From NCBI GenBank assembly GCA_964016885.1, contig OZ024752.1:17174001-17238000 (forward strand): a DNA stretch of 64,000 nt, given 5' to 3'. Positions within the stretch are counted from its first letter, which is position 1. Each line of letters opens with the position of its first letter. This document shows positions 25,766 through 54,251 of this stretch, piece after piece. The notes below the pieces were generated by a model. The model did not search any database. It worked only from the letters and a program-made list of their open reading frames with translations, and had not been told where the DNA came from. The position numbers were made by a program, and so were the translations under genes. This DNA comes from Eledone cirrhosa. Lineage: Eukaryota.

Positions 25766-26140
25766 AGGAAGCCGTAGCTATGCAACGGCTTCCTAAAATC
25801 GTATTTCTTTAGAAATACGAAACTTCTATACATATTGTATAAAGCTATGCTTGAAGCGAAATCTTATTTCTTTTCTATTATATGTTGAGCCAACTTATGC
25901 AGCTTCATATGCAAATGAGATTAATCACCTCATTTACACAGACGAGAAAACTATATATTCTCGGTTGTTTTCAAGTCCAGCAGTCGCAAAGCGGTGGAGG
26001 GATCGTCCTGACGATGGCCAGTCAAGCCTGAAATGCATAGACAGTTGTCCCCCTTGCTTCTGCTGGACATCACCAGAGGGCGTTAGCATAGCTACGGCTT
26101 CCTAAAATCGTATTTCTTTAGAAATACGAAATTTCTATAC
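25766..26140 (+). mobile_element. Miniature hammerhead-containing element: ~309-bp unit with terminal direct repeat and short inverted 5' arm
   Basis: ACGGCTTCCTAAAATCGTATTTCTTTAGAAATACGAAA at 25785 and 26094. AGGAAGCCGTAGCTATGC (25766) is the reverse complement of GCATAGCTACGGCTTCCT (26086). Confidence 0.65.
26005..26042 (+). ncRNA. Minimal type I hammerhead motif
   Basis: GTC-CTGACGA-T-GGC-CAGTCAA-GCC-T-GAAAT-GC-ATA-GAC. Palindromic stem III ATGCAT. Confidence 0.65.
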
Positions 26141-26458
26141 ACACATATATATATGTGTGTGTGTGTATCTGTATGTGTGTATGTATGGTGATGGAGGTGT
26201 TGGTAGCTGTGGTAGTGGTGTGTGAGTGTATATATATATATATATATATATGTTTGTGTGTGTGTGTGGTGGGGGAGTATTTGTCGTATATGAGGTAACA
26301 GGTGTGATATGATAATTGGAAATCATTTGAAAATGTCAGGTCAAATTTTGATGACAAGATAGTGTGACATGCATATTTCATTGAACAGGTTAAGCAACAA
26401 GTCTTTGAAACCACAAAACACACTGAGTTTTTTGTTTCATAGACGTCATTTTGTTACT

Positions 26459-28428
26459 GAAAATTGCAACTACTTCCTGTAGAAGAGAAAATTAGCACTA
26501 CTTCCTGTAGAAGAGAAAATTACCACTACTTCCTGTAGAAGAGAAAATTACAACTACTTTCTGTAGAAGAGAAATTTGCTACTTCCCGTAGAAGAGCACA
26601 TTACAACTATTTCCTGTAGAAGAGAAAAATACAACTACTTCCTGTAGACGAGAAAATTACAACTACTTCCTGTAGAAGAGAAAATTACAACTACTTCCTG
26701 TAGAAGAGAAAATTACAACTACTTCCTGTAGACGAGAAAATTACAATTACTTCCTGTACAAGAAAAAATTACAACTACTTCGTCTAGATAAGAACATTAC
26801 AACTACTTCCTGTAGAAGAGCACATTACAACTACTTTCTGTAGAAGAGAAAAATACAACTACTTCCTGTAGAAGAGAAAAATACAACTACTTCCTGTAGA
26901 AGAGAAAATTACAACTACTTACTGTAGAAGAGAAATTTGCTACTTCATGTAGAAGAGAAAATTACAACTTGCTGTAGAAGAGAAAATTACAACTATTTCC
27001 TCTAGAAGAGAAAAATACAACTACTTCCTGTAGACGAGAAAATTACAACTACTTCCTGTAGAAGAGAAAATTACAACTACTTCCTGTAGAAGAGAAAAAT
27101 ACAACTACTTCCTCTAGAAGAGAAAAATACAACTACTTCCTGTAGACGAGAAAATTACAACTACTTCCTGTAGACGAGAAAATTACAACTACATCCTGTA
27201 GAAGAGAAAATTACAACTACTTCCTGTAGAAGAGAAAATTACAACTACTTCCTGTAGAAGAGAAAAATACAACTACTTCCTGTAGAAGAGAAAAATACAA
27301 CTATTTCCTGTAGAAGAGAAAATTACAATTACTTCCTGTAGACGAGAAAATTACAATTACTTCCTGTAGAAGAGAAAAATACAACTACTTCCTGTAGAAG
27401 AGAAAAATACAACTACTTCCTGTAGAAGAGAAAATTACAACTACTTACTGTAGAACAGAAATTTGCTACTTCCTGTAGAAGAGAAAATTACAACTTGCTG
27501 TAGAAGAGACAATTACAACTATTTCCTCTAGAAGAGAAAAATACAACTACTTCCTGTAGACGAGAAAATTACAACTACTTCCTGTAGAAGAGAAAAATAC
27601 AACTACTTCCTGTAGAAGAGAAAATTACCACTACTTCCTGAAGAAAAGAAAATTACAACTACTTTCTGTAGAAGAGAAATTTGCTACTTCCCGTAGAAGA
27701 GCACATTACAACTATTTCCTGTAGAAGAGAAAAATACAACTACTTCCTGTAGACGAGAAAATTACAACTACTTCCTGTAGAAGAGAAAATTACAACTACT
27801 TCCTGTAGAAGAGAAAATTACAACTACTTCCTGTAGACGAGAAAATTACAATTACTTCCTGTACAAGAGAAAATTACAACTACTTCGTCTAGATAAGAAC
27901 ATTACAACTACTTCCTGTAGAAGAACACATTACAACTACTTTCTGTAGAAGAGAAAAATACAACTACTTCCTGTAGAAGAGAAAAATACAACTACTTCCT
28001 GTAGAAGAGAAAATTACAACTACTTACTGTAGAAGAGAAATTTGCTACTTCCTGTAGAAGAGAAAATTACAACTTGCTGTAGAAGAGAAAATTACAACTA
28101 TTTCCTCTAGAAGAGAAGAATACAACTTCTTCCTGTAGACGAGAAAATTACAACTGCTTCCTGTAGAAGAGAAAATTACAACTACTTCCTGTAGAAGAGA
28201 AAATTACAACTACTTCCTGTAGAAGAGAAAAATACAACTACTTCCTGTAGACGAGAAAAATACAACTACTTCCTGTAGAAGAGAAAAATACAACTATTTC
28301 CTGTAGAAGAGAAAATTACAATTACTTCCTGTAGACGAGAAAATTACAATTACTTCCTGTAGAAGAGAAAAATACAACTACTTCCTGTAGAAGAGAAAAA
28401 TACAACTACTTCCTGTAGAAGAGAACAT
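26459..28428. repeat. 28-bp minisatellite (TTACAACTACTTCCTGTAGAAGAGAAAA)n, ~70 units, with a 1105-bp higher-order repeat
   Basis: Diagnostic variants recur at 26571/27676, 26781/27886 and 26932/28037. Confidence 0.95.
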
Positions 28429-28529
28429 ACATGTAAAATATGTCCAGAAAAACCTTTAAAATTGAAATTTATAAATTAAAACAATAAAAAAGTAAAAATC
28501 TCAAATAGCATCTCAGATATGATATTTTA

Positions 28530-29005
28530 TCCACCCAGCTGGACGGAGGGGACGGCAAAAGGCCAGACGGTATGACCATCTTCCCGTTCCGCGGTGGAAA
28601 ACCCCACGTCTGGGATGCCACTTGCAGTGACACTTTCTCCAGCCTTAACCTGGTGCAGTCTGCGACTAACCCAGGTTCTGCTGCACGTCGGGCTGAGGAG
28701 GGCAAACTATCCAAGTACCGGTCACTCTCCGACAGGTTCGCGGTCGTGCCCTTGGCAGTGGAAACTTCTGGTGTCCTTGGCCCTTGGGCTTCCTCCATAC
28801 TCACCACCATAGGCGCTGATCTGGCCAGCCGCAGATGTGACCCTCGCGAGATGGAATGGCTGTTCCAGCGCATCTCCCTTACCATCCTCCGGGGAAACGC
28901 CTTCTCCATTCTGTCCGCCGGGGCTGTGGGAAGGCCAGCACGTGGGATCCCATTTGCTCATAATACAGAGAGATGGGGAGGGCGAGAAAGAGGGAGGCGA
29001 TGACA
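28530..29005 (+). mobile_element. CRE-like non-LTR retrotransposon 3' end (restriction-like endonuclease)
   Basis: GKRPDGMT..WDATC..AEEGKLSKY..PLAVETSG..FQRISLTILRGNA. Confidence 0.8.
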
Positions 29006-29282
29006 GTGGGAGTTCGGCTCCTCCATGTTCGGACCATACCCTTGAAATATATAAAGATGGAAATTTCAACAATTCCTAGACATTACCTTTTACTATTTTA
29101 TATCTATTAATCAACTTGACCGGATGGGAGATAGACGTTATTTTGTAAATAAACCGATTTTAGGATGAATAACGTACGAATGAGCAGAGACCACAGAATA
29201 CCATGTTGTTAGAATGTGGTAAATATAACAAGGTACTGGAGGTATTCGCACAAAATCAGAGATGAGCTTACATATTGAGGGT

Positions 29283-52250: not shown

Positions 52251-52700
52251 TAATGAGGAATCTGCAGATACTCCATCCTGACTATCCCTTCAGATTTATA
52301 CCTGTGATTATTGGAACACTGGGATATGTTAGTAACTGCCTCAGTACAAATCTTGATAAGCTGGACTTCACAGAACCAGAAAGAACACAATTAATTAGGA
52401 AATTACAAGTACAATCCATTAATAGAACAGTAAAAATATGTAAAACATTCCAAAAATTCTTCATGTAAATATTGCATGTACACATGTACAGATACAAAAC
52501 ATATGACCATGCACACATATAACTCAAAATATCTACATCCACACATACAATAACATCCATACTTACACACACACACGCATGCAGATATACATACGTAACT
52601 ACCTAGTTGATGTTGTGTAAATTCCAATGAAAGAATCTTGTATCTATGTCAGAAACCGACTCTCTATTGGTAAAATATATAAGAAATTATAAAACCAGAA
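52251..52700 (+). mobile_element. R4/Dong-like short 3' fragment
   Basis: MRNLQILHPDY...KFFM plus the 3' UTR, ending AAACCAGAA before a CATA/TA repeat. Confidence 0.85.
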
Positions 52701-52736
52701 CATATACATATATATATATATATATATATATATACA

Positions 52737-54022
52737 CAATTAACAACAAAGAGCGCTTAGAACATAGGTATATCTTTAATTGCTAACAGTGTTTCGTCCA
52801 CACTAGAAGTGGGACTCTTCAGAGCATAAAGAGTAAATACATAGTATACAAGCATTGACAAAGCCAAAACAGTAAAAATATGTAAAACTGTTGAACTGCG
52901 GCTAACTGCAACACCTAAGGCGTTCGCGTGCTCCTGATATATTCCATATATCACCATGAGTCAACACTAGTGTCACCTTAGGATTTCTATAATAATATTA
53001 TTATTACATGCCCTAATAATTACCATCTTGATTACCCTTATTACATCTTTTTACCCCCAGTTACATTTTTATAAATATGCATTACTTGGACTGATATGTG
53101 TATATATATATATATATATATATATATATATCCTTGTATATACGTCTCTTGTATATATATTTTTTATATATATTTTTGTATATATTTTTGTATATTTTAT
53201 ATATTGTACGTATATCACTTGTTGAACATAGCTTGATAGCTTATGCATTTGCCAGTCTTATCTTTACCCACACCTTCCTTTATGGTGTATATTTTACTCC
53301 ATTTTTTTTGGTGTATTGTTTTATTTATCTTCTGGTGTATATTTGACTTTACTTTATTTTATTTTATTCTATTTTATTTTATTTTTTATTTTTTATCTTT
53401 TATCTATTTTTTATCTATTTCTTATCTATTTTTTATCTATTTTTTATCTATTTTTTAATCTATTTTTTATCTATTTTTTATCTACCTCTTATCTATTTTT
53501 TATCTATCTCTATCTCTTAACTTGTGCCCATCCGTCTATGATATGTTATTTGTATTAGTGTATACTGTATGTGTTGCATATGGGTGCTTGTGTGTAGGTG
53601 CATGCGGGTGCTCATGCTTATGCGTATACTTGTATGTAGCTGTATGTTAACGGAACCCTGCCCAACTGTGAGTGATAACATTTCTTTTTTATTTTTCATT
53701 TTTATTTTTATTCTTATTTTTATTTTTATTTTTATTTTTATTTTTATTTTTATTTTTATTTTTATTTTTATTTTTATTTTTATTTTTATTTTTATTTTTA
53801 TTTTTATTTTACTCTTTTCTTATTTTACTCCTTTTACTTTACTCTTTAAACTCCTCCCAACTTATGGTATCCCCACACATATTCTTCTGTTTTGGCTTTG
53901 TCAATGCTTGTATACTATGTATTTACTCTTTATGCTCTGAAGAGTCCCACTTCTAGTGTGGACGAAACACTGTCAGCAATTAAAGATATACCTATGTTCT
54001 GAGCGCTCTTTGTTGTTAATTG
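52737..54022. mobile_element. Non-coding element with ~135-bp inverted arms, each carrying a hammerhead (52781-52826 minus; 53933-53978 plus)
   Basis: TGCT-CTGAAGA-GTCC-CAC-TTCTA-GTG-T-GGAC-GAAAC-ACT-GTC-AGCA (GTT in the minus copy). Confidence 0.8.
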
Positions 54023-54212
54023 TATTACGGCTCTGTCCTCTGACATTGAGCTAACCATATACTGCCTATTTGATAAGTGGAGTGTTACACACTCCCAATT
54101 CTCTCCCTTATATATATATATATATATATATATATATATATATATATATATATATATATATATATATATATAGACAGTTGAAAATTGCAAACTTGACTGT
54201 CACCACATATTA

Positions 54213-54251
54213 TGAACCTGAAGATTGCGAAAGCATGAAAGTACTTGATCA
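54213..54251 (+). ncRNA. Minimal type I hammerhead motif
   Basis: TGAAC-CTGAAGA-T-TGC-GAAA-GCA-T-GAAAG-TA-CTT-GATCA. GNRA-capped stem II and palindromic stem III AGTACT. Confidence 0.62.

Follow-up and report, generated by a model that had tools for sequence, protein, structure and literature searches.

Type I hammerhead motifs with self-complementary stem III in repeat-rich DNA of Eledone cirrhosa, and their likely cleavage as same-family pairs

Results

Hammerhead motifs of the window

The stretch analysed here, 64 kb of repeat-rich animal DNA from Eledone cirrhosa (contig OZ024752.1, positions 17,174,001 to 17,238,000; hereafter the window, whose own coordinates are used throughout), carries a set of type I hammerhead ribozyme motifs, a kind of motif known from Penelope-like elements (PLEs), and in many of these stem III and its loop together form a short palindrome. 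An initial annotation of this DNA had listed seven such palindromes in unrelated families of the interval 26005..54251, and had proposed activation by dimerization. Motifs were sought with a core descriptor (CUGANGA ... GAAA ... UH in type I order, with stems I-III) that never required palindromy. The first, strict version found only 4 cores, and it was relaxed post hoc, with candidates already known, so that it accepted a mismatched basal pair in stem II, a single internal mismatch, and a stem I with three of its four pairs formed. This relaxed but palindrome-blind descriptor returned 18 type I cores, 13 of them with a perfect palindrome of at least 6 nt, and the palindromes were exactly the seven sequences of the initial annotation, each lying between GAA and the cleavage base. 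Block-wise dinucleotide shuffling (200 shuffles) yielded on average 0.275 cores per window, and none of the 55 shuffled cores was palindromic. Allowing the bulged stem II of the published minimal hammerhead ribozyme (min-HHR) added 20013/17653 and 37884, for 21 rows of canonical cores. One of these, 44325 (descriptor match 44251-44325, minus strand), a single copy within a remnant resembling a long interspersed nuclear element, with a long stem II and a stem III (AGAT) paired by A-U only, was dropped as doubtful. The remaining 20 cores are as follows.

12580..12661 (minus strand, core 12656): family A hammerhead, ACTAATTAGT, inverted copy
13562..13643 (plus, core 13567): family A hammerhead, ACTAATTAGT
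20009..20050 (plus, core 20013): hammerhead with bulged stem II, AGAACT (non-palindromic); twin at 17653 (minus)
26005..26042 (plus, core 26008): type I hammerhead present once in the window, ATGCAT (26033-26038), with U.U at the stem II base
29283..29368 (plus, core 29286): type I hammerhead present once, ACATATGT (29357-29364), with a 61-nt stem II region that has U.U at its base
29845..29918 (minus, core 29915): family B hammerhead, ACCATGGT, within the inverted head-to-head copy 29565-30037
30102..30175 (plus, core 30105): family B hammerhead, ACCATGGT, tandem unit 1
30758..30831 (plus, core 30761): family B hammerhead, ACCATGGT, tandem unit 2, 656 bp past unit 1
31414..31487 (plus, core 31417): family B hammerhead, ACCATGGT, tandem unit 3 (a partial unit)
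32900..32950 (plus, core 32906): hammerhead with a 4-bp stem III and 8-nt loop, an imperfect palindrome; absent from the initial annotation
33296..33353 (minus, core 33349): ATGATCAT hammerhead, inverted copy
33982..34039 (plus, core 33986): ATGATCAT hammerhead, U.U at the base of stem II
37336..37406 (minus, core 37398): ATGCGCAT hammerhead (palindrome 37352-37345), 8-bp stem I; single copy
37846..37888 (minus, core 37884): hammerhead with bulged stem II, ATAACT (non-palindromic)
38683..38765 (minus, core 38759): family B' hammerhead, stem III ACCCTAAGGGT
52781..52826 (minus, core 52822): ACACTGT hammerhead, inverted copy
53933..53978 (plus, core 53937): ACACTGT hammerhead, G10.1-C11.1, 4-bp stem II
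54214..54250 (plus, core 54218): AGTACT hammerhead (54240-54245), stem I of 1 bp followed by a mismatch
55518..55599 (minus, core 55594): family A2 hammerhead, ACTAATTAGT, with a head-to-head partial copy (55612-55735) lacking the 5' core

Every family A copy falls outside the interval given in the initial annotation, and the AGTACT hammerhead, whose stem I is broken at the second pair, is likely decayed. The 20 cores hold 12 distinct stem III sequences: seven perfect palindromes, two of odd length with an unpaired centre (ACCCTAAGGGT at 38759, minus, and ACACTGT at 53937, plus, and 52822, minus) and three that are not palindromic (32906, plus; AGAACT at 20013, plus, and 17653, minus; ATAACT at 37884, minus), the AGAACT and ATAACT repeats being mutually alignable and sharing a non-palindromic AA centre. 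Thus, the description of stem III as a perfect short palindrome was accurate for the seven families listed but selective, as 5 of the 12 distinct sequences depart from it. Because the palindrome comprises stem III and loop III combined, and the monomer form has 1-3 bp closed by a 4-nt loop, only the central 4 nt are informative; a palindromic centre was found in seven of the nine even-length segments able to close such a loop, far beyond the chance of about 1 in 14 for each that we estimated by hand. At positions 10.1-11.1, the seven palindrome families carry U.U (four families), C.A, A-U, and G.U, of which U.U is a published variant (PMC3088659, PMC4209133, PMC7229834).

Taken together, the motifs are genuine, well above chance, and an instance of a published class. 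Rfam gave 0 matches at the gathering threshold and no hammerhead among 115 matches at E<=10, and a search for covariant cores (U3-A8 and others) added two doubtful rows only. Among collections, none of 120 metagenome loci (of about 660 estimated) passed the descriptor, and a further scan for relatives returned one viral and one genome match, both without stems by eye.

Two partial family A copies (13023-13160 and 55612-55735) begin inside the hammerhead at an inversion junction and keep GAAA, the palindrome, and the cleavage site without an intact 5' core; they are possibly substrate-only halves. At 37115-37200, a fold-back junction adjoins a decayed minimal hammerhead-like motif (TTGATGA core, 37194, minus), 300-400 bp past a GIY-YIG remnant.

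Relationships and compensatory changes

The families had been called unrelated, and as far as our comparisons go this holds among the seven: BLAST found no link between any of them, and homology of A and B was rejected after only 1 of 12 comparisons reached p 0.018. Within lineages, on the other hand, diverged relatives could be compared. Families A and A2 (about 80% identical) have the same palindrome but differ in stem II by two compensatory changes (GCAATG/CATTGC vs GTAAGG/CCTTAC). Families B and B', whose repeats are 72-75% identical, also differ by two in stem II (ATCCG/CGGAT vs GTTCG/CGAAC) and by one in stem I (CTC/GAG vs TTC/GAA), while their stem III segments share the ACC...GGT ends and differ in centres that are both still symmetric. 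This amounts to five two-sided changes; the other families are without a diverged homolog in the window. Judged by these changes, the hammerhead motifs are under structural selection.

A further feature of A, A2, B, and B' is that their stem II is long and is interrupted, 5-7 positions from the core, by an internal loop of about 7 nt per side. The 5' strand of this loop is complementary to the flank directly 5' of stem I over 6, 6, 5, and 7 bp (A, A2, B, and B', respectively), with P values against random 10-mers of 0.006, 0.07, 0.04, and 0.001 for windows chosen post hoc, and the distance from the core is the same along both arms (5/5 in B, 5/5 in B', 7/7 in A). The resulting candidate pseudoknots are listed below.

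30751..30779 (plus): candidate pseudoknot of family B, in which GAGTT of the 5' flank would pair with AGCTC of the stem II internal loop
13549-13581 (A), 38771-38741 (B'), and 55607-55574 (A2): candidate pseudoknots of the same arrangement as in B

A frequent, unphased variant in DNA contigs, T30754>C, would turn a U.G of the family B pairing into C-G. Such a pseudoknot, which would be intramolecular in monomer and dimer alike, has in our estimate somewhat less than an even chance of being real.

Element context

Pieces of PLEs lie in the same window.

17407..20259 (unstranded): 5'-truncated PLE-like element with a head-to-head inverted copy, comprising a reverse transcriptase (RT) end and a GIY-YIG-like end; open reading frame (ORF) 17934-19247 (minus)
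36353..36802 (plus): GIY-YIG endonuclease remnant, PLE type
57458..58841 (minus): broken PLE-type ORF (RT and C-terminal GIY-YIG), best named relatives in Argonauta and Octopus

The resemblance of the 17934-19247 ORF to PLE-type proteins is weak (E 3e-6, with no Pfam match). In favour of a PLE context, one hammerhead family, 20013/17653, directly follows a PLE-type ORF. Hammerhead-bearing repeats are arranged as six inverted pairs, every one of them head-to-head; two full cores are present in five of these, and the A2 pair includes a partial copy. The head-to-head arrangement has been called the most frequent one for PLEs (PMC3846280), for which a microsatellite bias and partial tandems next to an inverted copy are also described (PMC8557442, PMC3846280). 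A (TA)8+ tract occurs within 600 bp of 17 of the 20 cores vs 45% of random positions, copies not being independent. RT and GIY-YIG pieces, inverted pairs, and (TA)n neighbours are consistent with remnants of PLE terminal repeats, in which the hammerheads likely sit. Since none of the seven palindrome families has a joined ORF in the window, their own PLE origin is inferred.

The family B tandem and its predicted folding

29565..31700 (unstranded): family B element, an inverted partial copy and about 2.5 direct units of 656 bp

Family B is the only one with same-strand full partners: its three cores at 656-bp spacing, which lie away from any PLE protein match or PLE ORF, are the 3 of 20 that have one, and the other 17 are partnerless in the window. 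The family is high-copy, with about 2,500-2,700 contigs per DNA run aligning to one unit, and unit-to-unit tandem joints occur in some DNA contigs (three runs of one sample in both cases). The core, the palindrome, the inner part of stem II, and the 3-bp stem I are free of all 40 variant places listed (73 more exist), against an expectation of about two there, at low depth; one loose-end consensus (5 contigs, agreement 0.67) carries the palindrome-breaking ACAATGGT.

Constrained ensemble energies were computed for the two natural B dimers. The double hammerhead came to -202.4 and -197.5 kcal/mol, both-monomer folds to -190.1 and -185.0 kcal/mol, and single-monomer folds to -198.4, -200.7, -195.3, and -193.1 kcal/mol, so that the double hammerhead is predicted to be the best active fold of family B, though not the dominant one. 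As isolated monomers, all seven palindrome families have positive stem III energies (+1.5 to +6.0 kcal/mol), while stem III of B' is stable alone (-2.9 kcal/mol).

Other features of the window

The window also has 117 tandem-repeat rows and several RT remnants, and features apart from the hammerheads include the following.

1-3423 and 60580-64000: directly repeated 3.4-kb sequence (99.9% identity) that extends beyond the window at either end, reflecting either an assembly artefact or the tandem duplication of a large segment with a period of about 60.6 kb
21426-21667 (minus) and 28509-29003 (plus): two copies, 75% identical, of a coding remnant with no Pfam match, which may resemble the nuclease end of a non-LTR (long terminal repeat) retrotransposon
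26459-28425: 28-bp satellite, 71 copies, 88% matches; a second 28-bp array is at 49324-49713
47432-48832 (minus): ORF of 466 aa without interruptions, lying among repeats and encoding a glycosyl transferase family 11 domain (E 9e-41)

Discussion

We consider it probable that these are type I hammerheads with a self-complementary stem/loop III, which likely derive from PLE terminal repeats and non-coding derivatives of them, and that same-family tandem copies likely pair and cut each other, most copies likely being solo or inverted remnants. Where two copies follow each other head-to-tail on one transcript, their palindromes would pair over 6-10 bp and, from the topology of a double hammerhead, stem I would be exchanged too, so that the core of copy 1 would cleave the site of copy 2 and vice versa. 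Unit-length RNA would thereby be freed from multimeric transcripts, probably slowly or with the help of the element's protein, as published for other PLEs. Palindromy may persist because each copy invariably pairs with one identical to itself, and the identity of the palindrome in each family could then drift freely through changes that keep the symmetry. A head-to-head pair, on the other hand, places one sense and one antisense motif on each transcript, a geometry that makes a double hammerhead impossible.

Most elements of this model are on record. Palindromic stem/loop III and dimer cleavage have been described for PLE hammerheads, with palindromes differing between families of one genome (PMC4209133, PMC3088659, PMC6765202). 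Fig S8 of Perreault 2011 (PMC3088659) shows a palindromic stem III/loop III in four animals along with U10.1-U11.1 variants; Cervera 2014 (PMC4209133) treats palindromic 15.2-16.2 plus loop 3 as a feature of the class (consensus 'GAAAN Palind NU H'), its Fig S3 including family-specific palindromes such as CGCG and GGCC within Aedes; and reviews (PMC6765202, PMC6466107) set out the palindrome-plus-tandem dimer model, citing Lunse et al. and Forster et al. 1988. The metazoan PLE hammerheads of PMC4209133 resemble those studied here in their type I core, short stem I, and family-specific palindromic 15.2-16.2/loop 3, as well as in being mostly solo copies, with opposite-strand pairs 100-700 bp apart and a dimer model. 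In its Fig S3, a Hydra motif (U.U at stem II, CU AUU AG) is much like family A, and a Saccoglossus motif reads CA GUAC UG; no cephalopod row was seen in the text of that figure covered here (supplement parts 1-2 of 3), and a literature search for hammerhead ribozyme and octopus returned no title on these motifs. Differences exist as well: most motifs here do not have the bulge plus G10.1-C11.1 of that class, in A, B, B', and 29286 the stem II region contains an internal loop and, at 31-61 nt, is longer than in the Fig S3 rows examined, and a candidate flank-loop pseudoknot is present. A weak stem III, a palindromic loop, and rescue by pairing of two copies are shared with the double hammerheads of newt satellite 2, axolotl retrozymes, and ASBVd, and with Aedes, Schistosoma, and Nematostella repeats (PMC3088659 Fig S8; PMC6466107), which however have assayed activity or standard loop 1-loop 2 contacts, whereas the present motifs are predicted from sequence. 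Family B, whose head-to-tail units lack an ORF and each carry one type I hammerhead, is similar in build to the non-LTR retrozymes (PMC7229834; preprint 10.64898/2026.07.22.740005), but its 656-bp unit exceeds their RNAs of about 170-400 nt, its adjacent inverted copy is as in PLEs and unlike those retrozymes, and it is known here from DNA; the same preprint derives retrozyme-type repeats from PLE terminal repeats.

Several results weigh against our interpretation. Within the window, no PLE ORF is physically linked to any of the seven palindrome families, and the one family that is found about 285 bp past the stop of a PLE-type ORF end, 20013/17653, has a non-palindromic stem III. The unpaired base after A9 followed by G10.1-C11.1 of the min-HHR consensus (Cervera 2014) occurs only in 20013/17653 and 37884. 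With regard to folding, the unconstrained ensemble of the two B dimers is at -210.7 and -204.6 kcal/mol, which leaves the double fold 7-8 kcal/mol above it, and the minimum-energy fold of isolated motifs was never the hammerhead (11/11). Finally, in Xenopus only 1 of 9 dimer elements cleaved (preprint 10.64898/2026.07.22.740005). A double fold that is best among active folds but non-dominant agrees with the weak cleavage of min-HHR dimers in vitro (PMC4209133) and with a PLE hammerhead (PAc) that needed the element's protein for cleavage (PMC11167929). Dimeric activation as initially proposed is therefore plausible, being the published model for the class and predicted to be favoured over the monomer folds in the B tandem, and we regard dimer cleavage of tandem copies as likely on the basis of these predictions. 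The stronger statement that cleavage needs two tandem copies goes too far, however, given the 17 of 20 cores without a same-strand partner, the invertebrate type with 2 bp and a tetraloop, whose coral and mussel monomers cleave at about 0.8 and about 0.1 per min (PMC7229834), and the protein-assisted PAc ribozyme.

Those observed rates (kobs) also raise the possibility that A, B, and B', with palindromes of 8-11 nt, cleave as monomers braced by the pseudoknot, the palindrome merely accelerating cleavage in tandems. The 5-7 bp that flank and loop could form in A, A2, B, and B', a variant that would turn U.G into C-G in B, a monomeric B' stem III that is stable, and stem I-stem II pseudoknots that are critical in other hammerheads (PMC3088659) would all suit such a scenario, which we nevertheless find unlikely, as monomer stem III energies are positive for all seven families, the double fold is predicted to be favoured in B, the pseudoknot appears in two independent lineages only (A and B not being detectably homologous) with no two-sided change within either, and an axolotl 2-bp motif with U.U showed 22% cleavage as a monomer and cleaved far better as a dimer (PMC7229834). 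The pseudoknots of PMC3088659, a work which omitted highly repetitive type I motifs from part of its analysis, pair the stem II loop with the stem I arm, as predicted for A, A2, B, and B'; the contact here differs from theirs in involving an internal loop and in occurring alongside a dimer-type stem III, and no description of a flank-loop pseudoknot in PLE motifs was found among the literature titles listed. Brace and dimer could also act together, so that A and B would be pseudoknot-braced double hammerheads whose pre-folded enzyme half cleaves only a same-family partner via the swapped stem I and the palindrome, even in trans; we hold this to be quite unlikely. It could be argued, instead, that the motifs are real but cleavage is unneeded, and that they persist for a role in protein binding by, or folding of, the terminal repeat, or as passengers, and are now dead. 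Mutation of the PAc hammerhead left insertion in vitro unaffected, and for PAc RNA ends were not seen at the cleavage site (PMC11167929), Naiads proliferate without canonical hammerheads (PMC8557442), and here most cores are partnerless and several stems are broken. Retention of the catalytic core, the UH site, and the palindrome across diverged subfamilies with compensatory changes, however, makes this very unlikely in our judgement.

The initial annotation had gone on to suggest that the different palindromes could act as family-specific pairing codes, which we weighed as a selected device to stop cross-cleavage between co-resident families. Each of the seven does form a homoduplex (-8.7 to -15.2 kcal/mol) more stable than any heteroduplex (best among the seven, -4.8, on a scaffold whose energies are relative and slightly asymmetric), the palindromes of B and B' have diverged, and our literature search found nothing combining hammerhead, Penelope, and heterodimer, where the idea looks untested, nor, among the titles listed, anything on a pairing code for these ribozymes. 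A preference for homoduplexes is, however, automatic for any distinct palindromes. Among 300 length-matched sets of random palindromes, 64-75% equalled or exceeded the orthogonality of the seven when scored by energy, and 84-87% did so when scored by core-proximal pairs; over the 21 pairs, mean heteroduplex energy was +2.0 kcal/mol vs +2.2 and +2.5 for random sets, and mean core-proximal pairing was 1.76 bp vs 1.58 bp, so orthogonality beyond chance was rejected. ATG...CAT ends are common to three of the seven, A and A2 share one palindrome and are fully compatible, a hybrid in which B' acts on B would pair over 7 bp in stem I and 3 bp in stem III, and co-transcription of the partners makes a code unnecessary. 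In hybrid cores, 15 of the 21 pairs keep a stem III of 2 bp or more (in at least one hybrid core), 4 keep a stem I of 3 bp or more, and 2 keep both; stem I, which is swapped as well, thus blocks more hybrids than stem III does, and the exclusion is real but incidental and owed more to stem I. A selected code is unsupported by these comparisons and, in our opinion, highly improbable. Under dimer cleavage of tandem copies, family specificity would rather be a by-product of proximity, stem I, and stem III.

Our results add cephalopod-type examples to a class described between 2011 and 2017, which will not surprise the specialist. The window nevertheless provides a dozen natural variants, the diverged pair B/B', and one intact tandem as material for a heterodimer comparison, of which our literature search found none. 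If A and B were indeed pseudoknot-braced double hammerheads, the co-resident families would represent a natural set of mutually exclusive RNA-pairing ribozymes. Likewise, if the pseudoknot is real, its presence in a dimer-type motif could help explain why trimmed PLE hammerheads appear so slow in vitro, as the 5' flank may have been missing from them.

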